Shown here: positions 27,999 through 63,628 of the stretch, piece by piece | How the letters are laid out: every line of letters starts with the position of its first letter | Position numbering within the stretch: position 1 is the first letter of the stretch | IMG/VR virus record: IMGVR_UViG_3300048442_000810 | DNA: 64,000 bases | Origin: an uncultured virus (IMG/VR IMGVR_UViG_3300048442_000810) | Taxonomy: Duplodnaviria > Heunggongvirae > Uroviricota > Caudoviricetes | Reading direction: 5' to 3' (one strand) | Translations under genes and position numbers: made by a program | Notes under the pieces: model-generated | The model's database searches: none | Seen by the model: the letters and a program-made list of their open reading frames with translations, nothing else | Told to the model about the DNA's origin: nothing

Positions 27999-28396
27999 TT
28001 TTTAAATTTAGTATAGGCATAATATCCAATAGCAAAAAATGCAGCCCAATAATACCATTTAATAGCCTTATTTTGCATAACTCCATCATCAGCCCTCTCT
28101 TCTACATTTCCATTAAGAACTCCTCCTAAAGACTCTCCTGCCTTGTTGTATTCTAAATTTATAGTATTTGTGCCTGATGAAAAATCTTTAATAGATACAG
28201 TTTTGTTCTTATATCCAACATAAGAAATAGTAAGAAAGTCAGAAGGAAAGACATCAATGGTAAATAAACCTTTTTTATTTCCGCTTGTCTTTTTTTTATT
28301 ATCAATAATATTGCCCTCTCCATCAGTTACATAAACCGTTGCTTGTGGTAATATTTCTTGAGTTTTACTATCTACTACTAATCCGTTTGCTAACAT
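27995..28396 (-). CDS. CarboxypepD_reg-like domain with C-terminal anchor
   Basis: G.VVD..T.E.LP.ATV...G.F.I.......L.ISYVGY....V, as at the N-terminus of Bacteroidota SusC-like receptors. Confidence 0.75.
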   Translation of the reverse strand: MLANGLVVDSKTQEILPQATVYVTDGEGNIIDNKKKTSGNKKGLFTIDVFPSDFLTISYVGYKNKTVSIKDFSSGTNTINLEYNKAGESLGGVLNGNVEERADDGVMQNKAIKWYYWAAFFAIGYYAYTKFKK

Positions 28397-28401
28397 TTTA
28401 T

Positions 28402-28533
28402 TTATTTTTCCTGTGTTTCATCTATCATTTTATTGGAAATTGTTCTATGAATTAGTAAAAACACTCCTAATAAGACAACTCCTATAATTATATCTCTTTC
28501 CGCTTTCTTTATTTCTTTTTTTATACTAGACAT
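28402..28533 (-). CDS. 43-aa membrane protein (not in ORF track)
   Basis: Manual translation with IIIGVVLLGVFLLI helix. Confidence 0.55.
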   Translation of the reverse strand: MSSIKKEIKKAERDIIIGVVLLGVFLLIHRTISNKMIDETQEK

Positions 28534-28534
28534 T

Positions 28535-28699
28535 TTATTTTTTTGTTTTTTTGTTTTTCTCTGTTTTTTGGGCTTCTGCTACTTTAGATTTTATTGCTCC
28601 CGATAATCCTGTGTTTCCTTGAAATCCTTGATTTCCTATATTGCCTGAATTACCTGACCTTAAACCTAATCCTTTATTTGCTTTACCCGATAATCCCAT
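28535..28699 (-). CDS. 54-aa mini-collagen-like basic protein (not in ORF track)
   Basis: MGLSGKANKGLGLRS-GNS-GNI-GNQ-GFQ-GNT-GLS-GAI-K...; TAATG coupling with the upstream gene. Confidence 0.6.
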   Translation of the reverse strand: MGLSGKANKGLGLRSGNSGNIGNQGFQGNTGLSGAIKSKVAEAQKTEKNKKTKK

Positions 28700-29619
28700 T
28701 ATTTTCTTCCTAAAAATATGCCAAGAAGAATACCTGCTAAACCTCCTATTAACATTGAATTATCACCTTTTTTAGTAGAACTTTTATCCATCTTCTCTGC
28801 ATATTTATTGTCTTTGTCTACTTTTGCTTGAGTTTTAGCTTTATTTTTTTCATAATCAGATAAATCTTCCCATTCTTTATCAGAATATCCCCAATATTTT
28901 TTGGTATCAGAAACACTTAATTGACCTTTTTTCTTAACTTCTCCACCTTTTGCATATTTATTATCTTTTCTTCTGTAAAAATAATCTTGTGTATCTTTTA
29001 TGCCATAAGTATCAACATTATCAAACACACCTTTCTTTTCAAGTCGTTTTTCTATCATACTTGCACCTCTAAAAGTGTCTGAACTACCAACTACCTCTCC
29101 ATCATAACCACTATCTTTGTGAACAATGTATCTTTTGACTTTACCACCTTTTGCAAATTCAGAAAGAGGTTTATCAGGAAACATACGAGTTAAATTTTTA
29201 AGATGAGCATAAAACTTTTTATCTCTTTCATCTTTTAACCCTGTTGAAAATTCTAATTCATCTGCTAATTGGCTTGGTGTAAAATTGTTTGCTATCGCAT
29301 AATCATACATTCCCTGATAACCCTCTAATTCCTTTTTTACACTACCACCTTTTGCAAATCTCCCCATTTTTAATTCTCTTCCTTCTTTATAGTTTTCACC
29401 ATCAAACCATTTAGATATTTTCTCAATACCTTTTTGTAGTTTTTCTTTTAAATCTTCTATACTATCAAAAGTGAATTTGTCTTGTGTGTAATCTTCGTAA
29501 TTTCCTGTTCTGTGATAAGGTGCTTCCATATTTACATTACCGGTAAGAACTATAGTATGCTTACCATCAATACCTCTGCTATTATCAGGATTATAGTAAA
29601 ATACTTCTTGAAAACTCAT
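28699..29619 (-). CDS. KGG-linker polyprotein, C-terminal part with membrane anchor
   Basis: Three [FY]AKGG linkers; ends MLIGGLAGILLGIFLGRK; overlaps 29591..31174 out of frame. Confidence 0.75.
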   Translation of the reverse strand: MSFQEVFYYNPDNSRGIDGKHTIVLTGNVNMEAPYHRTGNYEDYTQDKFTFDSIEDLKEKLQKGIEKISKWFDGENYKEGRELKMGRFAKGGSVKKELEGYQGMYDYAIANNFTPSQLADELEFSTGLKDERDKKFYAHLKNLTRMFPDKPLSEFAKGGKVKRYIVHKDSGYDGEVVGSSDTFRGASMIEKRLEKKGVFDNVDTYGIKDTQDYFYRRKDNKYAKGGEVKKKGQLSVSDTKKYWGYSDKEWEDLSDYEKNKAKTQAKVDKDNKYAEKMDKSSTKKGDNSMLIGGLAGILLGIFLGRK

Positions 29620-31174
29620 CTAAATCTTCTGCCTCATCCATATATCCTGCATCCTGTAAAGAAGAGTAATCAACATTTTCAATACCTCCTAATTCTTTTA
29701 CTATGTCAGGATATTCTTCTTCAAATCTTTCTTTACCATATTCATAATTTAGATTTTCTACTCTTTCTAATTCAGCATCTAAAGTATTTGTAGGCAATGA
29801 TTTTCCTGAGCCTGTTAGATAGTTTCCGTATGTGAAAAAACGGTATTCATAGCCTCCATCAGTAAAAGGTATAAAGCCATCTCGACTCTTATATTCTACC
29901 TCTTCTCCTTTTATTTCTTGACCTTCATATTCTTGATTAGCATCTTCTAAAACATCTTCTAACTCATCTTTTAATACCTCAACTATTTTTTCTCTACTTA
30001 TAGTTTCTCCACCCTCGGCAAACCCTTGAGGGAATTTAGAACTATATATTTCATCGTTATATCGAGATGCATTATCAACTACTCTTACCCAAGTATTAGA
30101 ATCTTCTATTTCTCTTGCTTTTGATATTGCTCTTTTTTTATTTGGTGCCTCATCATCTAAATACACTACATCGTAGTTTTCATCAAAATCATAATCATCT
30201 TCGTTGTTGTAAACTCTAATAATATATTCTTTGTTTTCATCTAAATCTCCACCTTTTTCAAAACTTCTAATCACGAAAATATCTCCATCATTAGACTTGT
30301 ATTTCATTTTAGGAAAATACTTTTGTTTAGCTTCTTCAAAATTATCTCTATTCTGTCTTTCTGAATCAACAAAAATCACTTTATAATTATCTCCTGCTAA
30401 TACTTTTATTTCTTCTACATCATAATCATAATCTCCTCCGGACTGCCAATCATCTCCGAACTTTTGCTTTGCTAAATCAATTAAACCGTTTTCACTAACA
30501 AAATCATCTGTTGATGTGTAATTTCCACTTAAATCCTTTCCTAAACTGCCACCTTTTGCATATTTAGATAAATCGTATTCTTTTACTGTTCCTCCCTTTT
30601 TATAGTTTTGAAAATAATGTCCATCATATTCGTTATAATTGTTTATTGATAAATCTCTTCCCAAAGCCTCATAGTCAAAATAATATTCAGGATTTGAAAC
30701 ACCTTCAATACCTCCTACATTATCAACATAATTTTCTCCTAATTCGTAATCCCCATCATATTGTCCTATATATCTATCATCTACAAATTCCTCTAAATTA
30801 TCAGGGCTAAAATCATTTGCTATGGATTGTAATACTTCAGCAGGAATTCCTTTTTCTTCTGATATTTTATGAGTATCAATAATAATATCATAATCTGCCT
30901 CTCCCATATACTCACTATATAGGCTGCTATCAAAATTTTCGTAGTCGTGAATTGAGTGCTCAGTTTCTTCTCCGTTATGATACTTCTTGCTATATTCTTT
31001 CATAAGAGAAGCAATTTTATCGCTAACTTCTTCTCCACTATCATAATCAGTTAAATCAACCCACTCACCAACTAACCTACCTTCATTATAAGATTTTAAG
31101 TCTGCAACATAAATTTTTGGAGTATCATCTTTAAATTCTCCTCCTTTATTATATTTATATTTTTTCATTTCCAT
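29591..31174 (-). CDS. ardA: KGG-linker polyprotein, N-terminal part containing an ArdA anti-restriction domain
   Basis: IYVADL..YNEG.LVGEW...IHDYE...YFDYEALGRDL (ArdA signatures), flanked by YNKGG and YKKGG; three further linkers. Confidence 0.8.
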   Translation of the reverse strand: MEMKKYKYNKGGEFKDDTPKIYVADLKSYNEGRLVGEWVDLTDYDSGEEVSDKIASLMKEYSKKYHNGEETEHSIHDYENFDSSLYSEYMGEADYDIIIDTHKISEEKGIPAEVLQSIANDFSPDNLEEFVDDRYIGQYDGDYELGENYVDNVGGIEGVSNPEYYFDYEALGRDLSINNYNEYDGHYFQNYKKGGTVKEYDLSKYAKGGSLGKDLSGNYTSTDDFVSENGLIDLAKQKFGDDWQSGGDYDYDVEEIKVLAGDNYKVIFVDSERQNRDNFEEAKQKYFPKMKYKSNDGDIFVIRSFEKGGDLDENKEYIIRVYNNEDDYDFDENYDVVYLDDEAPNKKRAISKAREIEDSNTWVRVVDNASRYNDEIYSSKFPQGFAEGGETISREKIVEVLKDELEDVLEDANQEYEGQEIKGEEVEYKSRDGFIPFTDGGYEYRFFTYGNYLTGSGKSLPTNTLDAELERVENLNYEYGKERFEEEYPDIVKELGGIENVDYSSLQDAGYMDEAEDLDEFSRSILL

Positions 31175-31178
31175 ATTT

Positions 31179-31856
31179 TTATTTTATCAATAGTGCAGGT
31201 ATAAGAATTCCTGTCCCTACACCTAGACCATACCAAAATCCTTTTTTATCATAGAATCTAGTATCATTTCTGATAACTATATTTTTCAAACTACTAACAT
31301 TTACATAAGGATTTTCGTTTTTCACCAAGACTGAAGGTGTGGGAGCCTTGAAAAAACCGTTACTTTTCATTCCCAAAGTAATAGTTTGCCGATTATACAA
31401 AGATAAAGAATCTATCCACATACCCTTTGTATTTATAGTTGAATATATAGAGTACCATTCATCTTCCACACCGAACTTAGTAGGAAGTTTTAAAAAAGGT
31501 AATCCTGTAGCATCAAATGTAACTCTTTCAATAGTGTCTATAATGGGGACATATATACTATCTATCTTTGTAATAGTTCTAACTGTTACTTGAGATTTGA
31601 CCTTTTTTAAATCCTCTATAACAAGCAAATTTAGAGCAATGGCATCCTTTTGTGAAAGGATTACCTGCTCTTGTTCTGCTATTTTTTCTCCGTTTTCATT
31701 TAATTTCTCAACAAAAACTTGTTCTCCATCTTTAAATTTAATGACCTGACTTTTATAATCTCTTAATCTTTCATTAGCACTAAAAAGTTGCCAAATAAGA
31801 ATAAATAGAATTATAATACATATAGTTAGTGCATTATTTTTAAGTTTAGAAAACAT
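31179..31856 (-). CDS. Membrane protein with coiled coil (spanin-like, tentative)
   Basis: N-terminal TM, coiled coil, KIDSI..P..DT repeats, C-terminal Gly-rich hydrophobic end; next to the holin-like gene. Confidence 0.45.
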   Translation of the reverse strand: MFSKLKNNALTICIIILFILIWQLFSANERLRDYKSQVIKFKDGEQVFVEKLNENGEKIAEQEQVILSQKDAIALNLLVIEDLKKVKSQVTVRTITKIDSIYVPIIDTIERVTFDATGLPFLKLPTKFGVEDEWYSIYSTINTKGMWIDSLSLYNRQTITLGMKSNGFFKAPTPSVLVKNENPYVNVSSLKNIVIRNDTRFYDKKGFWYGLGVGTGILIPALLIK

Positions 31857-31864
31857 AATCCATT

Positions 31865-32059
31865 TTATTTCTTGTTTCCTATATTTGACAAGTGTTCTCC
31901 GGCATTACCTACTGCATAAATACCAAATATCCACATTACAAACTCAGACCAATTAGCAAAGTCTGCCTGTCCAATAAACAAGAAAACTGTTGCACATATA
32001 AACAATAAAATCGCAAAAAACATTTTACGACCACCTAAAAAACTAAATACTTTTTCCAT
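31865..32059 (-). CDS. Holin-like two-TM protein
   Basis: GRK then two hydrophobic helices, Y..GN. Confidence 0.55.
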   Translation of the reverse strand: MEKVFSFLGGRKMFFAILLFICATVFLFIGQADFANWSEFVMWIFGIYAVGNAGEHLSNIGNKK

Positions 32060-32071
32060 TTTTTCTTTTTT

Positions 32072-32737
32072 TTAATTCATAATTCTAACATCATATATAT
32101 TCTGATTGGCGGCTATTATTCTTCTATTAACCTCATCCCAATTTATAATTTTAAATATATTTTTGATGTATTTCGTTCTGTCTGCATCGTATTTCAAATA
32201 ATATGCGTGTTCCCACACATCTACTCCTAATAAAGGATATGATTGATACTCAGGCATATATGGATTGTCTTGATAAGGGGTAGCTAGTATATTTGTACTG
32301 CCATCTCTATTCATTACCCACCATACCCATCCTGAGCCGAATCTTTTCTGCGATGCTTCAATAATAAATTCTTTAAATTGTCCGTAAGTACCAAAGTCTT
32401 GAATAATTTTAGCCAATGAAACACCGTGTGGTGGATTTGACTTTTTTGATGGATTAGGTTTAAGCATTTTCCAAAACATAGAATGATTTACATACCCTCC
32501 TCCATTATCTCTAATTTCAATTGGGTATCTATCTATGTTCTGCATTACTCTAATAACCGGGTCAGTAATATCATATTTGTCTACTGCTGCGTTAAACTTT
32601 TTTAAATACCCTAAATAATGTTTATTGTAGTGTATTTGCATAGTTTCCTCATCAATATATGGCTCTAAACCGTTATATTTATAAGGAAGCCTTACAGGAG
32701 AAAAATGTATTAAATCATAGTCATCATATTTATTCAT
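32072..32737 (-). CDS. sod: Fe/Mn superoxide dismutase
   Basis: LPY.Y..LEPYI..ETM..H..KH, NH..FW, FGSGW.W, DVWEHAYY. Confidence 0.95.
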   Translation of the reverse strand: MNKYDDYDLIHFSPVRLPYKYNGLEPYIDEETMQIHYNKHYLGYLKKFNAAVDKYDITDPVIRVMQNIDRYPIEIRDNGGGYVNHSMFWKMLKPNPSKKSNPPHGVSLAKIIQDFGTYGQFKEFIIEASQKRFGSGWVWWVMNRDGSTNILATPYQDNPYMPEYQSYPLLGVDVWEHAYYLKYDADRTKYIKNIFKIINWDEVNRRIIAANQNIYDVRIMN

Positions 32738-33166
32738 TTTCAAACTTTTTATTGCGTGTTAAGTTGCGTGTGGTAACATACGAACCTCTGAACAAAGCAA
32801 AAGAACCAATTACACACACGACTAACAAAGCACTTAGAACAACTTTATTATTCACTTATTACTTACACTTATAGATTAAGTAACCTAACATTCCAATGAT
32901 AATTACATTGTGAACATTGTTACCACCTAAAAAATCTGCACTTTTAATATCAAACATTTTTTTTAAATTTTTGGGTTAATACTCGTTTTATTTACTCTCC
33001 TGCAAGTTATATTTTTTAATGAGATTTTTAGCGATAGTTTGTAACTTCTTTTTATCGGCTCTTGCAGGTGGGAGATTGTCGTTAGTAATATTAAGTTTAG
33101 ACTCTTGCATACTTGCAATTGTATATTTTAAATTCTTAACGATTTCTCTTGCCCTATTTACACTCA

Positions 33167-33658
33167 CTACTTCTTCAATAATAAATAGGCACCTACACCT
33201 ATTGCTATATATAAAATTAAATCATTATTATCTTTTTTACCTTCAACCGGCTCCGGATTTACTACAACTACAGGAGTAGGTGTTACAGGAACTTCTGTAA
33301 TAGGCTCAGTAACTACATTTTCTACAACGGCAGGACTGTATGGTAAAATAGGGTCAGTTAAAATAGGGTCAATAACAAAAGGTTCATCTTCTTTGGTTAC
33401 TACCACAGGTGGACCTTTTACAATTGGTGTATTGCAAGGGTCTTTATCTAATGTCCATCCTTGAGGGCAAACTGTTCCGGGGAACATATTAGAAACCCCA
33501 TATCCTTTATCACACTTATTACATATTACAGTCTGAGTAACAGGGTCTACAGGTCTAGTTGGTACACTTGGCACCGAAACAGGTGGTCGATTAGTTGGTA
33601 ATACAACCCTACTTCGACCTTGAGTAGCTGCTGCTTCAAACCATAATTCATTTGACAT
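33167..33658 (-). CDS. Tail-anchored Pro/Val-rich protein
   Basis: MSNELWF leader, small 4-Cys domain, C-terminal TM then KK. Confidence 0.7.
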   Translation of the reverse strand: MSNELWFEAAATQGRSRVVLPTNRPPVSVPSVPTRPVDPVTQTVICNKCDKGYGVSNMFPGTVCPQGWTLDKDPCNTPIVKGPPVVVTKEDEPFVIDPILTDPILPYSPAVVENVVTEPITEVPVTPTPVVVVNPEPVEGKKDNNDLILYIAIGVGAYLLLKK

Positions 33659-33851
33659 ATCTTTTTATTTTTTATTATTTAATCTAATCCTACTAATTCA
33701 TCAATAGTTTTGCCATCGAAATATTTATCTTTTAAGAAATTATCATAAAAACCAACCAAGGCTACAATAGCTAATAAGTTAAAAGCTACTTGATATTCAA
33801 AAGGGGCTAAACCACCTTTTTTTAATTTATTGTATGACCTTTTATTCATTT

Positions 33852-34067
33852 TTAATCTTCATTTATATTCCAATCTTGCTGAGGCTTTACGGCAATTATT
33901 TTAGGTGAATTTTCTTCTTTTAATTCTTTTTTTACTAATTTTATTCTTAAAACATCTAAATATGTTTTTACAATATAAGAAACTCCTATAGCAATTGCAA
34001 TAGAACCTCCTACTGTTAGTATTTTTTGAAGATGACCTTCTTCTAAATAATCTTCCCACTTAGCCAT
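33852..34067 (-). CDS. Small membrane protein
   Basis: One TM helix. Confidence 0.6.
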   Translation of the reverse strand: MAKWEDYLEEGHLQKILTVGGSIAIAIGVSYIVKTYLDVLRIKLVKKELKEENSPKIIAVKPQQDWNINED

Positions 34068-34188
34068 TTACAATGTGTTTTTAGTTATTGTAATATTTTT
34101 TGCTATATATTCTTGGTAAATCATATAAGCACCGTACCCTGCAAGGGCATATTTTATTATTGAAAACATAGTATATTATTTTTATTTG

Positions 34189-34641
34189 TTATGCTCCACA
34201 AGAACCACAAGCATTACTCATATTTGAAGTTTGCCAATCAGTACCTTGTAGGTTTCCTGATGCATTACTCATATTAGTAGTTTGCCAATTTGTTCCTTGT
34301 AAATTTCCATTTGCACCATAGAATCCGGTTCTTCTTCTTCCCGGAATAGCTGCTAACCAATTGTTATCTGCACTAGGCAATGCTTTTCTATCTCTTGGTG
34401 GACCGTAAGGAATCATATATCCTCTTCTTGCTCCTGAAGCATTCTGAAACACACCACCTTCTTGCCACATAGTTTCTCTGTTTCTACCTGACTGTTGCCA
34501 ATTTGTTCCTGTAAAACTTGAAGTTGGTTCAGCACCTTCAATTGGTGGAACTGTACTTGTTTTTGGTTTAGAGAAATGCTCGTAAGCTGCATATGCTCCA
34601 AATCCTGCTAGTCCGTAAAGACCAATTTTCATTAAATCCAT
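34189..34641 (-). CDS. N-anchored protein with repeated NASG-type motifs
   Basis: FTGTNWQQSGRNRETMWQEGGVFQNASG shared with 56764..57153; GNLQGT.WQT.NMSNA.G twice. Confidence 0.7.
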   Translation of the reverse strand: MDLMKIGLYGLAGFGAYAAYEHFSKPKTSTVPPIEGAEPTSSFTGTNWQQSGRNRETMWQEGGVFQNASGARRGYMIPYGPPRDRKALPSADNNWLAAIPGRRRTGFYGANGNLQGTNWQTTNMSNASGNLQGTDWQTSNMSNACGSCGA

Positions 34642-34660
34642 TTTTTCTTTTTTTTATTGA

Positions 34661-35074
34661 TTAATAATTATTTAATTTTTGTTTGATAGGTATTTCTAAA
34701 ACTTCGTTACCTTTAAATGTATATTCATTTTCAGGGTACATCATTTGCGAGTTACCTAAGTTGTCTATTCCCCAAACAGGAAAATCCACATCTTTCATTG
34801 TGATTCTTCCATTTGGAATGAGATTATAAGGTCTGTTTAAATCCTTACTATCTCTTTTATAACCTGTAACAGAATATATGTCACCATTAAATCCTAATGA
34901 TGCGGCTCCTCCAATTGGTAAGCCTCCTATTACTCCACTACTAGGTACAGTCACAACATATGGTTGTGATTGTCTATTAGAATCAAAAAAGTCATCACCT
35001 TCGTTAAACCACGAGTTATTCGTGTCTAACAAATTAGATACATCAGCATAGCCATCTTTAATAATACTATCCAT
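34661..35074 (-). CDS. Hypothetical protein with leader motifs and a conserved-looking C-terminal module
   Basis: SWFNEG and GFNG motifs; IP...ITMK.V.FPV.GIDNLGN.QMMYP..EY.F.G module. Confidence 0.65.
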   Translation of the reverse strand: MDSIIKDGYADVSNLLDTNNSWFNEGDDFFDSNRQSQPYVVTVPSSGVIGGLPIGGAASLGFNGDIYSVTGYKRDSKDLNRPYNLIPNGRITMKDVDFPVWGIDNLGNSQMMYPENEYTFKGNEVLEIPIKQKLNNY

Positions 35075-35240
35075 TTAATCCTTTTTTGTCTAATTCTTCT
35101 TTTACTATTTTCTTTACTCCCGGTCTAAAAACATATATTTCTGCCCACATTTCAAGAGCAACAAAGGCAGCTACTGCTACTGTAACCGTACCCCAATTTA
35201 TTTTATCACCGAATAACTTCATATTACCTTTTATATATTA

Positions 35241-35609
35241 TTAAAACAAAAATCTTGAGCCTGTAGGAATATCATATACAAAATCTTCACCTTCACAATA
35301 AAATGCTCCTTTTTTGCCATTTTTATCTAGCCAAAATTTTGATACAGTACAAGGTGTTTTACCATTAATAAGTCCTTTTGTTCCAATATGTAATCTTTCA
35401 GTTGCTTCATATTTATCATCACGAATTAAATCAATTGCATTATTATTTTTTGCATCACTAATGTTGATTGAATTATTAAATGTTGAAGCTAAATTATCCT
35501 GCCCTAAAGTTGTTTCAGTTAATTCATTTTTATCTTTTTTAATAAATAAAAAGTAAGCTGCTACTGCCGCTACTGATACACCTATAATAATTTTTGTTTT
35601 CTTATCCAT
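35241..35609 (-). CDS. N-anchored membrane protein
   Basis: N-terminal TM. Confidence 0.65.
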   Translation of the reverse strand: MDKKTKIIIGVSVAAVAAYFLFIKKDKNELTETTLGQDNLASTFNNSINISDAKNNNAIDLIRDDKYEATERLHIGTKGLINGKTPCTVSKFWLDKNGKKGAFYCEGEDFVYDIPTGSRFLF

Positions 35610-35622
35610 TTTATTATTTTAA

Positions 35623-35766
35623 TTACTTCTTTTTATATATCATCATACCTGTCTTTGTTTTTGATGCCACATAGGTACTTCCGTTATAACTAAATGATTT
35701 TTTTCCGGCTTTTCTTGCCTTTTCTTTTGCTTTCATATAAGCATTCATTGCTCTTTTCTTTGCCAT
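35623..35766 (-). CDS. 47-aa basic protein, probable DNA-condensing (not in ORF track)
   Basis: MAKKRAMNAYMKAKEKARKAGKKSFSYNGSTYVASKTKTGMMIYKKK. Confidence 0.65.
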   Translation of the reverse strand: MAKKRAMNAYMKAKEKARKAGKKSFSYNGSTYVASKTKTGMMIYKKK

Positions 35767-35768
35767 AA

Positions 35769-35933
35769 TTATTTATTTTTAAATTTATTTTTATATATGT
35801 AAAATGCTAAACCTGCCACAAGAATTGCACCTCCTATATACATTAGATTCTTATTTCTTTTTTCCGTTTTTACTTCTTGAGTACGAGCATCAATAACTGC
35901 CTGTTCTTCAATAGTATGTTGTTTAGCCGCCAT
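35769..35933 (-). CDS. 54-aa tail-anchored protein (not in ORF track)
   Basis: ...NLMYIGGAILVAGLAFYIYKNKFKNK. Confidence 0.6.
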   Translation of the reverse strand: MAAKQHTIEEQAVIDARTQEVKTEKRNKNLMYIGGAILVAGLAFYIYKNKFKNK

Positions 35934-35936
35934 AAT

Positions 35937-36203
35937 TTATTTTTTAAAAATTCCCTTACTGTAGGCATAATATACACCTACTCCAATAATTGCTATCCAA
36001 GCTAAGTTTGGTAAGCCCATAAAACCTGCTTTTTTTGGCTTTACCTCTGCCGGTTTAGTTCCCACATTATCTCCGGGTCCTATTACTTCTGCTTCAGCTA
36101 ATAATTCTTCTTTTACTTCGGCATCATCTTTTCCTGCTCCGTATAAAGCATCATTTACCTTTTTTATATATTCCGGGTCTGTTCCTTCTGCGAATCTTGA
36201 CAT
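35937..36203 (-). CDS. Tail-anchored protein, paralog of 36324..36587
   Basis: Shared KKAGFMGLP.LAW.AIIG.GVYYAY.KG.FKK. Confidence 0.7.
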   Translation of the reverse strand: MSRFAEGTDPEYIKKVNDALYGAGKDDAEVKEELLAEAEVIGPGDNVGTKPAEVKPKKAGFMGLPNLAWIAIIGVGVYYAYSKGIFKK

Positions 36204-36209
36204 AATTTT

Positions 36210-36317
36210 TTATTTTTTTCGGGTATGACTTTTTACTGTCTTACCTTTTCGTTTATAACTCTTGATTATTGTGCAAGATTTACTTCCACTTTTTTTTACT
36301 GCTTTTTTCTTTGCCAT
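36210..36317 (-). CDS. 35-aa very basic protein (not in ORF track)
   Basis: MAKKKAVKKSGSKSCTIIKSYKRKGKTVKSHTRKK. Confidence 0.6.
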   Translation of the reverse strand: MAKKKAVKKSGSKSCTIIKSYKRKGKTVKSHTRKK

Positions 36318-36323
36318 AATTTA

Positions 36324-36587
36324 TTATTTTTTAAACACTCCTTTTGTGTAAGCATAATATACACCTGCACCAATAATTGCAACCCAAGCTAAAGTTGGCA
36401 ATCCCATAAATCCTGCTTTTTTTGTTTTACCATCTAAAACTTCTGTGGTAGTAGATTCTGCTGCTACTTCAGTTGTAGGTTCAGGTGTTGCAATTTTAAC
36501 ATTATCACTAGGTGCTTCTTTAAATTGTTCTGCCAATATTTCTTTTCTTTCTGCTACGAATTTTGGGTCTATTTTTTTTGATGCCAT
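36324..36587 (-). CDS. Tail-anchored protein, paralog of 35937..36203
   Basis: Shared C-terminal 32 aa. Confidence 0.7.
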   Translation of the reverse strand: MASKKIDPKFVAERKEILAEQFKEAPSDNVKIATPEPTTEVAAESTTTEVLDGKTKKAGFMGLPTLAWVAIIGAGVYYAYTKGVFKK

Positions 36588-36605
36588 TTTTTATTAATTA
36601 ATTAT

Positions 36606-37169
36606 TTATTTATTTCTGTTTCTTAACATATATGCTATAGCTAGTGCTCCTGCTACTGCTACTCCAAAAATTAGGAGGTTATTAGTTGTTTTAGCTTTTT
36701 CTTCCGCCATATCTCTTGACAGTATCATATCGGTTTGTGCTTTACCTAATTCTATAGCAATTTGTTTTCTTGCGTTTAACTCTGCTAGTTCTCTATAGAA
36801 TCTTTTATCTTCCTTGTCATACTGCTCTTGCCTTCTTGCCATATCACGACCAAAAGCTGCGTTTTTAGCACCTATAAATATACCTGCTACTGATTGTGCA
36901 ACTGCTGAAACTGCCGTTGCAATACCTACTAAAAGTGTAGCTGCTATATTAGAGAATCTTCCCTCCTCTACCTTGCTTTGAAAAATTATTATTCTAGCAA
37001 TAAAATCTTCATCTAGCATATGATATGCTACTGCTTTATTTACTTCATCTACAGGAGTATTAACAGGCAACTCAGCATAACCATTCTCATTAAGCCATTG
37101 AATTACCAAAACTTTATGGTCAAGAATGAATCCGGCTAAACCCTTAAATGCTAAATTATTTGTTTTCAT
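36606..37169 (-). CDS. Prodomain + hydrophobic peptide + coiled coil + TM protein
   Basis: FSN then IAATLLVGIATAVSAVA, charged helix, C-terminal TM; paralog of 37169..37726. Confidence 0.7.
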   Translation of the reverse strand: MKTNNLAFKGLAGFILDHKVLVIQWLNENGYAELPVNTPVDEVNKAVAYHMLDEDFIARIIIFQSKVEEGRFSNIAATLLVGIATAVSAVAQSVAGIFIGAKNAAFGRDMARRQEQYDKEDKRFYRELAELNARKQIAIELGKAQTDMILSRDMAEEKAKTTNNLLIFGVAVAGALAIAYMLRNRNK

Positions 37170-37726
37170 TATTTCATTATTTTTATCGCTATATATACAA
37201 CTACTCCACCTGCTAATGCTATATATAATGAATTCATTCTCGTATTTTCTCTATTTTTTTGTATCAAATTTTCTTCTTGTTGTAGATAATCTGATTGTGC
37301 TAAAAGAAATTGTTTTTGCATTTCTTTTCTTTGTAAAAATGCTATTTCATCTCTTGTTTCTTTATTTAAATACCTAGACCTAAAACCTTCTCTAAATATT
37401 TCTTCACGCATTTTTTTGTTTCTGCGTATATCTTGTTGTACCGCAATTCCTGCCGTTACAACTAATAAACTTCCTATTATCCAAGCAGCCGTTGCAGTTA
37501 GAGTAAAAATTGCATTTTTATATTCATTTTCTTCAGTAGCTATTTCCATCAATCCGTTTTGTAACTCTTTATTGGTTGAGTTATCAATAACTACTTCATT
37601 TACACTTGCAATAGGTGCATTTAAAGGCAGCGATGCTATCCTTAACCTATTGATTAGGGATATTACATCATTTTTATTTTGCAGTAAAAAAACTGCTAAA
37701 TTAGATATTGCCTTTTCTTTGTTCAT
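37169..37726 (-). CDS. Prodomain + hydrophobic peptide + coiled coil + TM protein
   Basis: YKN then AIFTLTATAAWIIGSLLVV, charged helix, C-terminal TM. Confidence 0.7.
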   Translation of the reverse strand: MNKEKAISNLAVFLLQNKNDVISLINRLRIASLPLNAPIASVNEVVIDNSTNKELQNGLMEIATEENEYKNAIFTLTATAAWIIGSLLVVTAGIAVQQDIRRNKKMREEIFREGFRSRYLNKETRDEIAFLQRKEMQKQFLLAQSDYLQQEENLIQKNRENTRMNSLYIALAGGVVVYIAIKIMK

Positions 37727-37727
37727 T

Positions 37728-38225
37728 TTATACTGTTGCAGGTTTCTTTTTTAATGCTACATATGCTACCACTCCTATAACTAATGCCCCAACTCCTAAA
37801 GCAACATAGGTTAATGTTTTATCTTCTGTTTTTCTTGCAGCACTTTTCAAATTTGCTTCTTGAAACATTTTTTCAATATTAGCATCAAATTCTGCTGCTT
37901 GTTCATCTAATTTTTTCTGAGAACAGTCTAGTTCATCCCATTTATTTTTAAAGTCTAATCTTCTATTTTCTAAGGCTCTTGAATTTCTTGTGATTACTCT
38001 GTCTTTAGCACCACTATTAGCATTTTTAGTCAAATCCTTATCAATAACACCAATAGTATCATCAATGGTATCACAATCCATCTCATCTTCTAACTTGTAC
38101 TTATCGTTATATCTGTCTACTGCCTTGTTATATCTTTCTTTTTCTGCTTTTTTAGGTGCAAAAAAATCCTTGAACCAAGTTCCTCCTATAAATCCGGGGT
38201 GATTAAACCATAATTCTTCTTGCAT
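37728..38225 (-). CDS. Tail-anchored helical protein, NHPGF family
   Basis: LWFNHPGFIGGTWFKD; paralog of 53866..54459 and 55912..56601. Confidence 0.7.
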   Translation of the reverse strand: MQEELWFNHPGFIGGTWFKDFFAPKKAEKERYNKAVDRYNDKYKLEDEMDCDTIDDTIGVIDKDLTKNANSGAKDRVITRNSRALENRRLDFKNKWDELDCSQKKLDEQAAEFDANIEKMFQEANLKSAARKTEDKTLTYVALGVGALVIGVVAYVALKKKPATV

Positions 38226-38229
38226 AATT

Positions 38230-38451
38230 TTATTTTTTTAATTTACTATATATTATTATTGCTACTATCGCAAGAGATATTCCTCCTACTAATTTTAAAA
38301 CTGCACTTCCAATACTATTATCTTCTTCTTTAAATTCATCTATGCTTCCAACTGCATTAGAGTAATTTTCTTGTTTACATTTACCTCCGCACTTACATTC
38401 ACCTCCATTTTGGCAAGGGTGATACTCTTTATTTTTGCATCCACAACTCAT
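38230..38451 (-). CDS. Tail-anchored protein with Cys-rich (metallothionein-like) N-terminus
   Basis: 6 Cys in 25 aa, YSNAVG, C-terminal TM. Confidence 0.65.
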   Translation of the reverse strand: MSCGCKNKEYHPCQNGGECKCGGKCKQENYSNAVGSIDEFKEEDNSIGSAVLKLVGGISLAIVAIIIYSKLKK

Positions 38452-40718
38452 TACTTTCTTCCTAAAAATATACCAAGAAGAATACCTGCAATTCCTCCTA
38501 TCAGCATTGTGTTATGCTCTTCATTTCCTTTTTTCTTTACCTCTCCACCTTTTGCATAACCTCTTTCAGCTTTTATTTCTTCAATAGCATCTTGATATGT
38601 TTCATCCGTAGGAGTTCCATCTTCATTATATCCATCAAGTTCAGGATGTTTTTCAAGCCATTCTATTATTTCTTGATGTGATATTTCTCCACCTTTTGCA
38701 AAATCTTCTTTATCAAGTTCTAATGCCTCTAATAATTCTTCTTTAGTGTTTATGGGTGTCGGTGTATTCATAGAATTTCCTAACCATATTTCATAAAGTT
38801 CTTCTCTTGATGGGTTGTTTTCAAGAACTTCCTCTATGTGCGAAACATCAATACCATCATTATTCATATCATCTATATACATACGAACTATCTCCTCACT
38901 ATTTACATTATCCCAATCTCCCTCGCCCTTATCTTGTAAATAATCATAAAATTCTCCAAAAGACATATCCTTAATAGAGCCACCTTTAGCAAAGTCCAAT
39001 TTAGGTGTCCACTCTACTACTTTATATTGAATAGAACTACTCATTCTTTGCAGTTTATTTTTTTCGTCTTGAGCATCTTTGTATGATAGATATTTTTTGC
39101 CACCCGTTAAAAACTTCTCATCTTTCCATTTTGGAACTCCTAAATCATATTTACTTTTTTCTTGAATTTTGTAAATCTTTCCTTGTGTTTTACCACCTTT
39201 AGCAAATCTGTTTTTTTCTTCTACATATTTTAAACCTTGATTAGATAGTTTATATTCTCCTTTATTTATTAATCTTGCCCAATTTTCAGCTTCTTTTTTT
39301 GTTTTATAAGAAGGGTTTGAGTATGTACTTCCATATTTTTTTAAGTAGTATTTTCCGTTAGTTCCATAAACAGATACTTCCCCACCTTTTGCAAAAGTTT
39401 CTAAATTTTTAACCATTGCTTCAACTCTTCTTCCATTTGTTGCTTCAACTATTGCCACACCCCCATCATCTCCATCTGCTCTTAATTTTATTATTTCTTC
39501 TACTTTACCACTTTGTCCTTTTCCCATACCACTTATTGAATGTGGGAAATTGTCTTTTGTTGCTCTAACCACATCTCCTACTTCAATTTTACCACCTTTA
39601 GCATAAGATTGAACACCATCTTCATCTACTTCCCAAAGATAACCTTGTTGACTCATAATTTGAGATTTATATGCACCATCTTCAATACTTGAAAGTGCAA
39701 TTTCTAATGCCTCACTATATGTTTTTACTTCTTTATCTAAACTTGGCTTATTGCTATTGTATCTTGCTTTACTTTTCCAAACCTCAACTGAAAAAGGACT
39801 ATCTTTTTTAGGCTCTACTTCGCCACCTTTTGCGAACTCTAATTTCTCTTTTTTATAGACTTCATATGGAAATAAAAATTGAGCAGAATACAACTTCATT
39901 TCACCTTTTTTCCAAAGTTCTATTTCTTTTTCAGTAGGTGCAGAAAACTCATCCCAATCACTACCTTTTTCGTGCTTTACAAGAGCACTTGTTTGAATAG
40001 TATCTTCATCAACATAAAAATCCTCTTCTTTCATATCTGCGTATGAAACAAAATCATTTAAAGTTTCAAATAAATCTTTTTTATTAGTAAACTTAGTTTT
40101 ATATGGAAAATCATTTTCACCTAAGTAATATGAATGAAATTGGTCTTGCTCTCCCTCTTCATAAGAATCTTCGTAAAAAGTAACATCAGCACCCTTTATT
40201 TGGTATGTTTTTCCAACTTCCCCACCTTTTGCATAATCTTCGTGTTCTATTCCAAAATTATCATAATCCTCAATATCGTTTTTACTATCTATTAAGCCCT
40301 CTGATTCTTCGCTAATGTTTATTCCATAAATCTCTATTTTATCCCAATTTTTCTCTGCAAACGACTTGCTTACTTCTTGAAATTTATATCCATCAGAGAA
40401 TGTTATAAAACCGCCTTTAGCAAATTTTGCTTTTTGTTTCTTAGCATCTTGAACGGTTTTGTATATGCCTCCTAAATCTTTCTTGATGTCTTTAATTTTG
40501 TTCTCTCTGTCCTTAATAGATTTCTTTTCTCTATCAATGCCACTTTCTAAATTATTAATTTGATTTTCGGAACTTGTAATATCTTTACGAATGCTTTTTA
40601 TCTCATCTCTACCTTCATTGATTTCTTTATCGCCTTTTTTAGCAACATTACCCATAGCTTTAGCAAGTTCAATTTGACCTCCTCTTTCGTAACTATTATT
40701 TCTATTTCCTCTTTTCAT
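38451..40718 (-). CDS. KGG-linker polyprotein (755 aa) with membrane anchor
   Basis: Nine [FY]AKGG plus one YERGG separating unrelated modules of about 45-130 aa; ends MLIGGIAGILLGIFLGRK. Confidence 0.8.
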   Translation of the reverse strand: MKRGNRNNSYERGGQIELAKAMGNVAKKGDKEINEGRDEIKSIRKDITSSENQINNLESGIDREKKSIKDRENKIKDIKKDLGGIYKTVQDAKKQKAKFAKGGFITFSDGYKFQEVSKSFAEKNWDKIEIYGINISEESEGLIDSKNDIEDYDNFGIEHEDYAKGGEVGKTYQIKGADVTFYEDSYEEGEQDQFHSYYLGENDFPYKTKFTNKKDLFETLNDFVSYADMKEEDFYVDEDTIQTSALVKHEKGSDWDEFSAPTEKEIELWKKGEMKLYSAQFLFPYEVYKKEKLEFAKGGEVEPKKDSPFSVEVWKSKARYNSNKPSLDKEVKTYSEALEIALSSIEDGAYKSQIMSQQGYLWEVDEDGVQSYAKGGKIEVGDVVRATKDNFPHSISGMGKGQSGKVEEIIKLRADGDDGGVAIVEATNGRRVEAMVKNLETFAKGGEVSVYGTNGKYYLKKYGSTYSNPSYKTKKEAENWARLINKGEYKLSNQGLKYVEEKNRFAKGGKTQGKIYKIQEKSKYDLGVPKWKDEKFLTGGKKYLSYKDAQDEKNKLQRMSSSIQYKVVEWTPKLDFAKGGSIKDMSFGEFYDYLQDKGEGDWDNVNSEEIVRMYIDDMNNDGIDVSHIEEVLENNPSREELYEIWLGNSMNTPTPINTKEELLEALELDKEDFAKGGEISHQEIIEWLEKHPELDGYNEDGTPTDETYQDAIEEIKAERGYAKGGEVKKKGNEEHNTMLIGGIAGILLGIFLGRK

Positions 40719-40720
40719 AA

Positions 40721-41758
40721 TTATCTTCCTATAAAAAATGCACCAAGTAAAATACCTGCTATCCCTCCTACAAGTAAAGTTTGATTATTATTATCTTCAG
40801 TATTATCAACTTTTTTTGCTTCTACTTTTTCAATTTTATCATCACATTTATCTTTAGTGATAGTTGCTTTTCTTAAAGCACCTTTTTCCTTCTTTAGTTT
40901 AGCAATTTCTTTGTCTTTTTCTCTTCTTAGCTTAACATATCTATCTCTGTCAATTTTACCTTCAACAGAGCCTCCACGAGCCATTTTTATTTTCTCTATG
41001 CTTCTAACTCCATTTGCAAGTTGCTCTCCTTTGTTAAAATCTTCAATAGATTTATAATTAGTTTCAAAACCTTCATTATGCTCATTAATAAATTCCATAG
41101 CTTCTGATTTTGTTAGATATTCAGTAGCATCTTCATCATCAGATTCACGATATACATATCCACCTTTAGCCATTTTTCTTTTGCCTTTATCCATTGTAGA
41201 TACATCAGCATACTTTCTTCTACCCATAGATTTTTCCATTCCTGCACTTTCTCTCATTCTACTGTCTAAAGATTGAGATTTTTTTCCTCTGTTTCTTTCT
41301 CCTATGCTTTCTCTATCTCTGTCATCATAACCCTGAGTTTTTCCACCTTCCATAAACATTCTATCGCCTTTGTCCATAGTGTCTACACTTGAATATGCTC
41401 TACGACCTAGATTTTTATTAGCTGCTTTGCTTTCATCTCTTCGGTCTTTTAATGTTTGTGTATAATTGCTTTCTCTTCCAAGTCTAGTTCCTAAATCTTC
41501 ATTTAACTTGTCGTTATACCCTTGTGGTTTATCGGTTTCTCCTCCTTTAGCCATCTTTTTCTTATTTGCTATTTGTTGCATATTTAAAGCAAATTGTGCT
41601 CTTTCACGAGTTCTTTCTGAAAAGTCAGTTGGATTATCTTTTACTTTTTTAGCAAAATCTTGAACGGACATACCTGCATCAGTAGCTTGTTTAGTAAACG
41701 CACCAACAGTTCCTTTTTTTTCCATTTCTTTATCTACATTTTGAATCCAATCTGCCAT
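40721..41758 (-). CDS. KGG-linker polyprotein (345 aa) with membrane anchor
   Basis: MAKGG x2, FMEGG, MARGG; two paralogous QGY.D...TMDKG modules; ends LLVGGIAGILLGAFFIGR. Confidence 0.8.
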   Translation of the reverse strand: MADWIQNVDKEMEKKGTVGAFTKQATDAGMSVQDFAKKVKDNPTDFSERTRERAQFALNMQQIANKKKMAKGGETDKPQGYNDKLNEDLGTRLGRESNYTQTLKDRRDESKAANKNLGRRAYSSVDTMDKGDRMFMEGGKTQGYDDRDRESIGERNRGKKSQSLDSRMRESAGMEKSMGRRKYADVSTMDKGKRKMAKGGYVYRESDDEDATEYLTKSEAMEFINEHNEGFETNYKSIEDFNKGEQLANGVRSIEKIKMARGGSVEGKIDRDRYVKLRREKDKEIAKLKKEKGALRKATITKDKCDDKIEKVEAKKVDNTEDNNNQTLLVGGIAGILLGAFFIGR

Positions 41759-41762
41759 ATTA

Positions 41763-42266
41763 TTAATTTTTTTTCATTATTAAATAACCTAAAACTAAAA
41801 CAACTGCTCCAATACCTAAATACATTGCCATATTGCTATCATCATCTGAGCCTGATGTAACACCTGCTGCTACACTATCATCGTTTACATCATAAGAGGT
41901 CAAGTCATCTGAATCAACTCCTAAATCTTCATCTATAACTTCATCAATCTCTTCTTGATTACTTGGTTGTTCCGAAATAGTCATTTCTGATAATTCATCA
42001 TTAAAATCACTAAGATTCATAGATGTACCACCTTTTACTGTAACTTCTTTTCCGGGGTATCGTGAGTCTGATGGTCCGTGTTCTCTTAATGTTGCACTAT
42101 ATCCATCTCTTACTGAAATATGTGATGCATCATCATTTGGAAAATCAGTATCTCCTAAAAAAGTACCTTCTCCAAAATTTTCTTGCCATCCCGGAAATCT
42201 ACTATCACCATCTCCGTGTTGAGATAATGTTACTGCTCCTGTTTGTCCAAACCAAATATCACTCAT
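41763..42266 (-). CDS. Beta/gamma-crystallin-like domain with C-terminal anchor
   Basis: Duplicated L..HG..DSR.PG unit, FPNDDAS.I.V..G...TL.EH and FNDELS Greek-key-like motifs; acidic linker; TM. Confidence 0.6.
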   Translation of the reverse strand: MSDIWFGQTGAVTLSQHGDGDSRFPGWQENFGEGTFLGDTDFPNDDASHISVRDGYSATLREHGPSDSRYPGKEVTVKGGTSMNLSDFNDELSEMTISEQPSNQEEIDEVIDEDLGVDSDDLTSYDVNDDSVAAGVTSGSDDDSNMAMYLGIGAVVLVLGYLIMKKN

Positions 42267-42367
42267 ATCTATTTATTTATTAAAAACATTTTTGTTCATA
42301 TACCATAATCCTACGGCTATAATTGACCAAAATACTATTCTAGGTTTTCTTTTCTTTTCTTTTGCCA

Positions 42368-42848: not shown

Positions 42849-43012
42849 AACTTAATTATTTTTGTTCTCTTGCTACATTTCTACCTTTTTGCCACCCATA
42901 TCCAAGTGCAAAAAACATTGCTCCTGTTAACACAAGAGAAACTGCGAAAGTGCCAATATTCATTTTTTGTTTTGCCATTTTATTATTATTTAATTGTTAC
43001 AATTATTTATTA

Positions 43013-43399: not shown

Positions 43400-43404
43400 A
43401 ATTA

Positions 43405-44538: not shown

Positions 44539-44544
44539 TTTTCT

Positions 44545-62809: not shown

Positions 62810-63628
62810 TTATGTTAGGAAATATTGCTGCCTTATTCTAGCCCTTACTTGTCTAATAGCTTCATCTCTATCAATTTTAGAGCCATCACTTAAACTTTTT
62901 TTATTAATAGCAGGTTTTACTACGGAATTAAAATTTTTAGATAAGTATTCATCTATTCCATTATTTATAATTGCTTCAGACATTTTTCCTTTTAATTTTT
63001 CTTCATCTAAATCTACATACATAAAATATCTAGGATTATCATTAAAATACTGTGTGTTTACTATATTTTCAGCTATACTAAACATTTCGTATTTATCAGG
63101 AAATTTATTTCTATGTCTTTCAATACTATCTGAGTTTTTATGAAACCTCAACCAATTAGCATTTTGCCATACTTTAGTTGTTATTCTTCCAATACTCTGA
63201 AAATGCATAATAATATCTAAGTCTGTGTGTCTGTTGGAGCAAATAGCACCTACAATATCTGTTGGAAGATGGTCACCTACATACTTATTAATGTCCTCAA
63301 TCAATAACATACCCCCTCTAAAATAGTGTAGTATATCCCATAATTGATTTGCTATTTCTTTTAAAGTAAGTCTTATTCCTGTTTGCTCATTAAAAGGTCT
63401 TACCCTTCTTATTTCTGCGGTAGGCATAACAGAAAATCTTACTAAATCTTTCATAGATATAGCTTTATAATCTACAAACTCATCATTAACATCTAAAATT
63501 AATACTCTACGAGGAAGAACCCCTTTTGATGGATTTCCATAAACATAGGATTCAATAAGTATTTTAGTTTGATAAGTTTTACCAATCCCTTTTTTTCCTA
63601 CTGCCATTCCTAGCTTTGGTTCTCTCAT
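62810..63628 (-). CDS. A32/P9-like FtsK-HerA genome-packaging ATPase
   Basis: Walker A GKKGIGKT near the N-terminus, Walker B LLIED, then RH......HFQ (Arg finger plus Gln sensor); 272 aa with no nuclease domain. Confidence 0.8.
   Translation of the reverse strand: MREPKLGMAVGKKGIGKTYQTKILIESYVYGNPSKGVLPRRVLILDVNDEFVDYKAISMKDLVRFSVMPTAEIRRVRPFNEQTGIRLTLKEIANQLWDILHYFRGGMLLIEDINKYVGDHLPTDIVGAICSNRHTDLDIIMHFQSIGRITTKVWQNANWLRFHKNSDSIERHRNKFPDKYEMFSIAENIVNTQYFNDNPRYFMYVDLDEEKLKGKMSEAIINNGIDEYLSKNFNSVVKPAINKKSLSDGSKIDRDEAIRQVRARIRQQYFLT

Follow-up and report, generated by a model that had tools for sequence, protein, structure and literature searches.

Gly-Gly-jointed module arrays with a shared tail anchor in an uncultured marine virus: candidate polyvalent effector cassettes

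In the 64-kb window analyzed here (the whole stretch of 64,000 nucleotides (nt) from the uncultured virus IMGVR_UViG_3300048442_000810), three minus-strand genes (AB, C and D, the first of which is broken in the window; Table 1) appear to encode strings of small, unrelated, independently folding modules that are separated by a short Gly-Gly joint. The joint is the boundary of every recognizable domain and the site at which whole modules are exchanged in frame among related viruses, including exchange between the three loci. At least one module is predicted to act in counter-defence (ArdA), and each string seems to close with the same C-terminal tail-anchor helix. We regard it as very probable that the proteins are modular, exchangeable and of a counter-defence type. 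The explanation favored as a whole, with a probability of about 0.5, is that an uncultured virus of marine bacteria encodes in these genes hypervariable arrays of polyvalent effector cassettes, linked by the joint and anchored at the tail.

The joint as domain boundary and exchange site

Counted by regular expression, the motif [FYM]-x-[KRE]-G-G occurs ten times in gene C, five and three times in the two open reading frames (ORFs) into which gene AB is split, and four times in gene D. These counts and places are the same as in the original prediction, which had been made from the letters of this DNA and had listed 22 linkers between mostly unrelated modules. Outside the polyprotein ORFs just 3 copies were found in the six frames of the window (a single copy each in a 15-codon frame, within 49377-49871 and inside the ATPase gene), and the chance expectation from 30 simple base shuffles of the window is a mean of 1.6 copies with a maximum of 4. 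The joint consensus has seven positions, namely an aromatic residue or Met, Ala, Lys/Arg/Glu, Gly, Gly, any residue and Val/Ile; E, K or S predominate directly after GG, and V, I or T at the position that follows. In the window, the stretches from one joint to the next measure 31-183 amino acids (aa), with 4-12 segments in each polyprotein gene. Near the start codon, a joint lies at 8-14 residues in genes AB and C and in several relatives. At the other end, three of the ORFs finish on MLIGG[LI]AGILLGIFLGRK or LLVGGIAGILLGAFFIGR, a hydrophobic tail that closes on basic residues and hardly differs among them, which AlphaFold2 modeled as a helix in ORF C (residues 735-752).

The two AB ORFs overlap by 29 nt (29591..29619, minus strand), and in the related loci L003, L005 and L007 a single ORF spans both halves (768-854 aa where complete). 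The counterpart in L008 is cut by the end of the locus and its junction is uninterrupted there, so that the junction is intact in five related loci (the four named and L010) as well as in the protein P0020. Compared by blastn and MAFFT with L003, the DNA of which is 99% identical, the window is without 32 nt at about 29602, inside one module, which results in the frameshift; it also carries one additional 67-aa module that is bounded by joints. The intact gene of the relatives and the 32-nt deletion together reduce the polyprotein genes to three, all of which carry a tail anchor. The four minus-strand ORFs of the original prediction are thus present as described, but two of them are halves of one gene. 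The frameshift may be a real lesion or an assembly error.

A search with gene C returned 52 marine metagenome proteins, one of them that of the window itself, with a shuffled module content; their contigs reach 99 kb (99,403 bp for the longest in this protein cluster). Together with the three other window ORFs they made a set of 55 proteins, which was cut at the joints and yielded 546 segments in 197 module clusters, 134 of which are singletons. Interior modules occur in many orders in this set, and the tail-anchor cluster (cluster 3) has 27 segments. The protein P0002 equals gene C minus one 70-aa module, which is removed exactly between two joints, and gene D is near-identical to its five orthologues save one inserted, one deleted and one replaced module, each bounded by x-A-[KR]-G-G. 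Synteny is conserved across seventeen metagenome loci; in L003, L004, L005 and L008 identity to the window is 95-100% over the flanking genes, and the polyprotein genes differ by whole modules. Exchange also crosses the loci: the two modules that straddle the AB break follow the leader of locus C in P0020, P0035 and P0036, and in L015, too, modules of AB come after that leader, the gene at locus C having window AB as its best match. Modules move between loci, in frame, against an almost invariant genomic backbone. The proteins are strings of unrelated modules, as the original prediction had it, and whole modules are swapped independently of each other with their ends exactly at the joints. With the backbone near-identical and the variation confined to three loci, the arrays represent an unusually clean case of in-frame cassette exchange in a virus.

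The domains that could be recognized respect the same boundaries. In the window, in the relatives from the protein search and in G002 (one of three related IMG/VR records, G001-G003, of 100-102 kb and 100% complete according to CheckV), each of the 11 Pfam matches fits between one joint and the next, with no joint inside any of them, which agrees with the expectation that joints mark module and homology boundaries. Three of the matches are to ArdA, three to ART-PolyVal and one each to LPD11, DUF2958, DUF5661, DUF4240 and DUF5824. The ArdA module of gene AB matched PF07275 at E 2.2e-23 (84 bits where the gathering cut-off is 27; a full-length match over positions 1-153 of the 155 in the profile) and the anti-restriction family phrog_2059 of PHROGs at 1e-25, and is bracketed by YNKGG at residues 8-12 and YKKGG at 191-195; the anti-restriction content that had been proposed for the strings is therefore present in the window itself. 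ART-PolyVal (PF18760) was found in P0024 at 1.8e-15 and in two ORFs of G002, the better one at 2.4e-48, and LPD11 (PF18824) in G002 at 3.6e-31. The N-terminal module of gene D resembles phrog_20603 (1e-05), a family of unknown function.

Gene C was modeled with AlphaFold2 from a 35-sequence alignment (mean predicted local distance difference test score (pLDDT) 55.5; 401 of 755 residues below 50). Every AKGG site falls within coil of pLDDT <50, and secondary structure (helix or strand) resumes 2-8 residues past GG. The confident parts show differing folds, i.e., a helical hairpin, an alpha/beta domain, and smaller mixed units further along. The hairpin is the leader, with means of 70-89 for 10-residue blocks over residues 21-100; it corresponds to module cluster 4, is present in 23 of the 55 proteins and has many invariant columns in a 16-sequence alignment (A1), and only weak coiled-coil-type matches to it were obtained in NCBIfam and Pfam. 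The alpha/beta domain is module 1 (cluster 1, 35 segments among the 55 proteins), which has block means of 65-88 over residues 171-290 and consists of strands and helices between the joints at 162-166 and 295-299. No match of the gene C model to the PDB was found by Foldseek at E<=0.001. A motif that recurs at roughly domain-sized spacing might also be expected of an ordinary repeat protein in which AKGG belongs to one repeated folded domain, an outcome that the original prediction had itself raised as speaking against modules. Given the 197 clusters with their 134 singletons, the different folds (hairpin, alpha/beta, ArdA) and the placement of the motif in low-confidence coil between dissimilar neighbors, module clustering and the gene C model rule this reading out and leave it practically no probability. 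Not every aromatic-x-x-GG is a boundary, however: FLTGG at residues 536-540 of ORF C is internal to one unit, both halves of which co-occur in 7 of 7 carriers among the 55 proteins.

At the codon level, the joint varies synonymously (Ala is GCA in 9 and GCT in 7 joints; the second Gly is GGA in 10, GGT in 6, GGC in 4 and GGG in 2), which argues for selection on the peptide and not on the DNA. This bears on a reading of the joint as a nucleotide signal, in which an internal Shine-Dalgarno sequence (AAGGAGG) would restart or pause translation at each module. Lys-Gly-Gly can indeed be written AAAGGAGG, but just 5 of the 22 joints are so spelled, the GGT that encodes the first Gly in 16 of 22 breaks the AGGAGG core, and there is no start codon at a fixed distance, so that codon spelling rules the signal out and we assign it a negligible chance. 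A secondary bias at the DNA level exists, as GGT makes up 40% of the Gly codons in sampled window genes against 16 of 22 at the first Gly of the joint (P = 0.002), and each related genome favors one joint spelling, e.g., GCTAAAGGTGG in some and AAAGGCGG in others. Counts of promoters and terminators in 27500-45000 were not above those in shuffles.

The modules, unrelated as they are, have in common a near-absence of cysteine. The four polyprotein ORFs contain 1 cysteine in 1933 residues, compared to 1.42% in the other ORFs of the window (P = 3e-11), and the 55 examined proteins contain 35 in 40,408 residues. Neighboring membrane proteins are rich in cysteine, and one ORF has as many as 19. Such a constraint, common to modules that are otherwise unrelated, may mean that all of them take one route, e.g., exposure outside the cell or unfolded passage.

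The original prediction had supposed that the motif may be widespread, and this was borne out in related uncultured viruses. In 50 IMG/VR records that carry the zinc metallopeptidase candidate (zincin) of the window, a DNA pattern for [FY]-A-[KDNE]-G-G gave 342 sites against 9 in the reversed control, almost all of them on one strand in each record. At least one site is present in 40 of the 50 records, which include all 12 with a completeness of 90% or more, and 31 records have three or more. The joints of G001-G003 are less strict, with F, Y or M separated from GG by two variable residues; the proteins that bear them are giants of 852-2575 aa with ART-PolyVal, LPD11 and DUF2958, and they end in a conserved basic helical module instead of a membrane anchor. 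The polyproteins of 1505-1918 aa in these records (G001 19167-24923, G002 23919-28964, G003 68529-73046) are headed by a conserved Gly-rich N-terminal domain without a Pfam match, which is also seen at residues about 100-190 of P0033. Its pattern is ...GG-V-x-V-G-K-R...H-x-x-G-G-I-K...P-L-E-M-x-G-G-E-V-V-I-T..., and the same polyproteins terminate in R-F-x-K-G-G-Y-V-R-[LI], at the very C-terminus. No DNA or protein match to gene C was found in GenBank phages, and single-protein scans of IMG/VR, one for gene C and one for the ATPase, returned no relative. Among the full-text literature matches listed for the AKGG-type motif, none concerned a phage or this motif.

Processing, tethering or docking at the joint

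With about even odds, the joint would be a protease recognition site at which the string is cut into separate small proteins. The best candidate for the cutting enzyme, and the only conserved protease candidate, would be the M48-like zincin, which may process the joints. Its residues H193, E194, H197, E207 and D211 are invariant in 45 sequences, so that HExxH and a downstream Glu are present, and this invariant zinc-binding motif makes a metallopeptidase likely. The zincin is represented by 591 cluster representatives at E<=0.001 among 1.84 billion proteins, lies in one block with the capsid-like and ATPase genes, and is among the three best-conserved genes shared with G001-G003. In its AlphaFold2 model (pLDDT 94.5), residues 128-261 are similar to BepA (6sar_A; Z 8.4, root-mean-square deviation 3.5, 118 residues aligned by VIA-align, a tool for which a Z near 8 is common). 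Further M48 chains scored lower (3c37_B, Z 6.5; Ste24p 4il3_B, Z 6.5; ZMPSTE24 6bh8_A, Z 6.2), and two viral "Peptidase M48" models in BFVD were matched at E 2.1e-3 (a Sylvanvirus) and 7e-3. No Pfam family (including Peptidase_M48) was matched by the zincin even at E<=10, nothing was obtained in NCBIfam, where the four polyprotein ORFs, the zincin, the capsid candidate and the ATPase together gave coiled-coil noise on the leader only, and a PDB sequence search returned nothing useful. No peptidase family was detected by Pfam inside the polyproteins, either in the four window ORFs or in 30 relatives. As another possible Gly-Gly peptidase we considered an LRAT/PPPDE-like protein of G002 (Pfam LRAT 3.6e-5, Peptidase_C97 5e-4), which has a C-terminal hydrophobic stretch and an NCEHF motif, which is typical of LRAT-type enzymes; it was rejected because it is found in G002 and G003 only, with no homologue in G001 or the window.

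For what follows cutting, the proposals become more tentative. That the strings are placed by the tail anchor on a virus-specific membrane, with their modules carried along in the particle and working against host defences as infection begins, seems plausible to us although it falls somewhat short of an even chance. In its most complete form the mechanism would be one of plug-and-play delivery, in which any small protein flanked by joints could be recombined into a tail-anchored array, loaded onto the virion membrane, and cut at every joint (perhaps by the zincin, with a specificity new for the M48 family), so that dozens of small, cysteine-free counter-defence proteins would be set free and delivered with the DNA, all in a new lineage of large bacterial viruses that lack a tail and contain a membrane; taken together, these steps are unlikely.

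Several observations weigh against the cassette reading or against parts of it. Cleavage, presence in the virion and co-delivery are inferences, as they were in the original prediction. No cysteine protease of the adenain, Ulp1 or pS273R type (clan CE) was found among the scanned window ORFs (at least 120 aa) or the 107 ORFs of G002 (at least 90 aa), a result that covers the window, with about 35 kb of this virus lying outside and a divergent enzyme being able to escape Pfam. M48 peptidases are not known to have Gly-Gly specificity. FDFGG of the capsid candidate, which we tried as a common cut site, is not conserved in G001-G003, so that no structural precursor visibly makes use of the joint as well. 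A second motif, [FY]xN[AF]xG (in its wider form [FYW]-x-[NGS]-[AF]-x-G), was found 13 times in non-overlapping window ORFs, compared to 2.7 +/- 1.65 expected from residue shuffles, and none of the 13 copies is in the polyproteins. The tail anchor is evidently not essential to the system, as the polyproteins of the more distant G001-G003 do without it. If the viral membrane arose by pinching off from the cytoplasmic membrane, as in PRD1, the N-terminal part of a tail-anchored protein would face the capsid and not the DNA-filled lumen, and its way into the cytoplasm of the next host would be hard to explain. Among the 8 that were read of 23 shorter relatives, there was no free-standing single module (the ArdA family itself aside); all were multi-module proteins or fragments. 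Finally, with its 401 low-confidence residues, the gene C model bears on the structure of a minority of the modules, namely module 1, the leader and portions of four more.

The strings might instead remain uncut, as intact multi-domain proteins tethered to the membrane like beads on a string, with the joint as a tolerated hinge that also provides microhomology for in-frame exchange, aided by the RecT and PD-(D/E)XK nuclease encoded in the window. Insertions, deletions and swaps of modules that end exactly at joints, the GGT bias of the first Gly together with the one preferred spelling per genome, and the failure to find a Gly-Gly protease in the scanned ORFs would all fit this reading, and most of the polyvalent proteins described by Iyer et al. 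(2017, PMC5512222) were not shown to be cut. A hinge, however, needs no conserved aromatic residue, Ala, or beta-branched residue after GG, and has no explanatory power for a joint that lies 8-14 residues from the start codon; the motif persists across viruses with core proteins just 37-54% identical, and the 8-11 nt of DNA shared per joint are short for homologous exchange. On balance we judge uncut strings somewhat unlikely.

Still less probable, in our opinion, is a joint that serves as a docking motif, binding a common partner (a capsid or membrane protein, a host chaperone or a translocon) so that each module is held or handed over alike. A conserved linear motif of seven residues in disordered sequence would suit such a role, as would the second recurrent linear motif in the capsid-like and membrane proteins of the same virus, and a shared translocation route would accord with the near-absence of cysteine. 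Yet the partner is hypothetical, ten copies per protein at variable spacing (31-133 aa) are unusual for docking, and the motif is always at module edges, as a processing or exchange site predicts.

The virus and the other genes of the window

The virus looks like a member of a large, uncultured and undescribed lineage of tailless, membrane-containing viruses infecting marine bacteria, as judged from its genes. The 249-aa capsid candidate is probably the capsid protein; it has two paralogues in the window, which may be vertex or spike proteins, and the three share a core of about 150 aa with a T-I-D-P-Y-Q-x-Q stretch. Along with the zincin and the ATPase it is one of the three genes best conserved with G001-G003, in each of which one ORF has 37-38% identity to it. 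A search of the ESM Atlas gave a best score of 0.78 and no lead. The small P-loop ATPase, a candidate for genome packaging, is 47-54% identical to ORFs of G001-G003 (46-48% for the HExxH protein) and has weak Pfam matches to DUF87/HerA (9e-4) and AAA_22 (7.6e-3). Neither the ATPase nor the zincin matched any of 50,697 GenBank phage records, and PDB sequence searches with the ATPase and with ORFs of 453 and 495 aa returned nothing useful. About 25 ORFs between 31 and 61 kb (31000-61500, minus strand) have a C-terminal hydrophobic helix as a tail anchor. The polyprotein genes are found among these small tail-anchored proteins, between the capsid-like paralogues and near the packaging-type ATPase, i.e., in a structural block, where the original prediction had put them.

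No tailed-phage hallmark was detected by Pfam and PHROGs in the scanned window ORFs; terminase, portal and HK97 capsid had no Pfam match in the 107 ORFs of the 102-kb record G002, and a prohead protease was matched neither among the scanned window ORFs nor in G002. Inverted terminal repeats were found in 5 of the 50 related records. The markers of a bacterial host in the window are GH108, DUF2272/CHAP and peptidoglycan-binding domains, RecT and ArdA. Nine bins of metagenome-assembled genomes carry the HExxH gene, four of them from Bacteroidota (Sediminibacterium, Lishizhenia, Bacteroidales and one labeled Bacteroidota only), one from Ignavibacteria and four scattered; a host in Bacteroidota is suggested by only 4 of these 9 bins, which is thin. 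Zincin and ATPase together define a large virus group, the contigs of which measure 40-102 kb, apart from a single one of 170 kb.

Some further features were observed beside these. The second motif sits in the N-terminal arm of the capsid candidate (59778-60527) and in small membrane proteins (e.g., 38230-38451, 34189-34641, 56764-57153 and 46508-47266). Several of the tail-anchored ORFs are cysteine-rich, among them 47945-49420 with 19 Cys, and 43405-43854 and 43873-44538 with 8 each and a repeated C-x-D-x-x-A-x-N-Y...D-D-G-S-C motif. Within the membrane-protein block there is an Fe/Mn superoxide dismutase gene (32072-32743, minus strand; Sod_Fe_C 1.2e-32, Sod_Fe_N 4.9e-21), which is 87-100% identical in related loci. 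The ATPase is flanked by ORFs with methyltransferase domains (61317-62789 and 63630-63998, both minus strand; Methyltransf_24 5.1e-09, Methyltransf_23 5.5e-08), and an FkbM-type methyltransferase is encoded at 22060-23184. An ORF of 2361 aa (5553-12638, plus strand; Pfam Collagen, 990 bits) consists almost throughout of collagen triple-helix repeats and has no Cys and no His. Its GC content is about 50%, compared to near 30% in the rest of the window, and its AT skew reaches 0.44. At its start, G002 has an ORF with a Cas12f1-like/TnpB TNB domain (L097:106-405; PF07282, 6.2e-23), and elsewhere several HNH/NUMOD4 homing-endonuclease-like ORFs and a sulfotransferase/APS-kinase cluster.

Table 1. 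Positions of the polyprotein genes, their parts, and other genes discussed in the text (numbering of the 64-kb window)
Feature	Position	Strand	Remarks
Polyprotein gene C, 755 aa	38451..40718	-	14-residue N-terminal peptide ending YERGG, leader, 9-10 modules, tail anchor
Joints of gene C, 5 codons each	38544-38558, 38688-38702, 38979-38993, 39192-39206, 39381-39395, 39591-39605, 39822-39836, 40221-40235, 40410-40424, 40677-40691	-	
Conserved leader of gene C, residues 15-103, helical hairpin	40410..40676	-	helices 11-56, 61-100
Module 1 of gene C, residues 167-299, alpha/beta	39822..40220	-	most widespread module
Tail anchor of gene C, MLIGGIAGILLGIFLGRK	38454..38507	-	counterparts 28702-28755 (gene AB), 40724-40777 (gene D)
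Polyprotein gene D, 345 aa	40721..41758	-	5 segments and tail anchor; joints 40970-40984, 41159-41173, 41342-41356, 41540-41554
Gene AB, N-terminal part, ORF of 527 aa	29591..31174	-	joints 30008-30022, 30248-30262, 30548-30562, 30590-30604, 31139-31153
Gene AB, C-terminal part, ORF of 306 aa	28699..29619	-	tail anchor; joints 28942-28956, 29143-29157, 29344-29358
ArdA anti-restriction module, residues 21-187 of gene AB	30614..31114	-	Pfam PF07275, phrog_2059
Zinc metallopeptidase candidate (zincin), 276 aa	57165..57995	-	N-terminal beta-sandwich, then M48-like helical catalytic domain
Capsid-protein candidate, 249 aa	59778..60527	-	paralogues 472-936 (+) and in 25960-27321 (-)
Small P-loop ATPase, 272 aa, candidate genome-packaging ATPase	62810..63628	-	Walker A GKKGIGKT
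RecT	17115-18158		
PD-(D/E)XK nuclease	21230-22060		

Comparison with known systems

Polyubiquitin and ubiquitin-fusion precursors are cut after ...RGG, and like the arrays they consist of head-to-tail units that end in basic-Gly-Gly within one chain. The units of the arrays, however, are unrelated to each other and to ubiquitin, and no deubiquitinase-like enzyme was found in the scanned ORFs. In adenoviruses, adenain recognizes (M/L/I)-X-G-G|X, and in African swine fever virus (ASFV) the polyproteins pp220 and pp62 are cut at G-G|X by pS273R. The likeness lies in a hydrophobic residue upstream of Gly-Gly at polypeptide boundaries and possibly in the kind of virus, with an internal membrane (ASFV) or of the jelly-roll/packaging-ATPase type; unlike in those viruses, the hydrophobic residue would be at P5 instead of P4, and the units are swappable accessory modules instead of fixed core-shell components. 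The analogy would concern the mechanism only.

Counter-defence proteins carried in the particle are known from T4 (IPI, IPII, IPIII and Alt) and P1 (DarA, DarB and DdrB), some of them trimmed by a virion protease. Those are single proteins of tailed phages with an N-terminal capsid-targeting peptide, whereas the arrays are multi-module strings with a C-terminal membrane anchor; moreover, the joint is based on Gly-Gly, and neither a site of the prohead-protease type (L/I-x-E) nor such an enzyme, as for the head cargo of T4, was found here. Processing of DarA and DdrB in P1 and the anti-restriction role of IPI in T4 are mentioned by Iyer et al. (PMC5512222).

The closest comparison is with the polyvalent proteins of that paper, in which two to fifteen unrelated, conflict-related domains are combined in one polypeptide of a phage or conjugative element, and for which delivery with the invading DNA, and for some of them processing by a metallopeptidase, have been proposed (Iyer et al. 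2017, PMC5512222). With ArdA in the window, ART-PolyVal and LPD11 in the relatives, 4-12 segments per gene and mosaic architectures, the arrays are polyvalent proteins in the sense of these authors. Because ArdA is among the few recognizable modules, and 197 clusters were obtained from 55 proteins, the remaining modules are good candidates for new inhibitors of bacterial defences. If the cassette reading is true, the joint would be a sequence handle by which hundreds of small, mostly unknown viral proteins could be pulled from metagenomes as functional units, and a large virus group (genomes of about 70-100 kb) that has no cultured member would gain a grammar of protease sites and perhaps a new M48-like specificity. 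Should the plug-and-play form hold as well, the several hundred module families would amount to an already indexed catalogue of anti-defence proteins not known so far. The arrays of the window differ from the polyvalent proteins of Iyer et al. in having one standard joint of seven residues that is the point of exchange, a conserved leader, a tail anchor and no built-in peptidase (such as MPTase, which a subset of that family has), and in belonging to a virus that looks tailless and membrane-containing. The words "linker", "glycine" and "transmembrane" occur 0 times in that main text (PMC5512222), and as far as the literature matches reach, the standard joint, the leader and the tail anchor appear to be described here for the first time.

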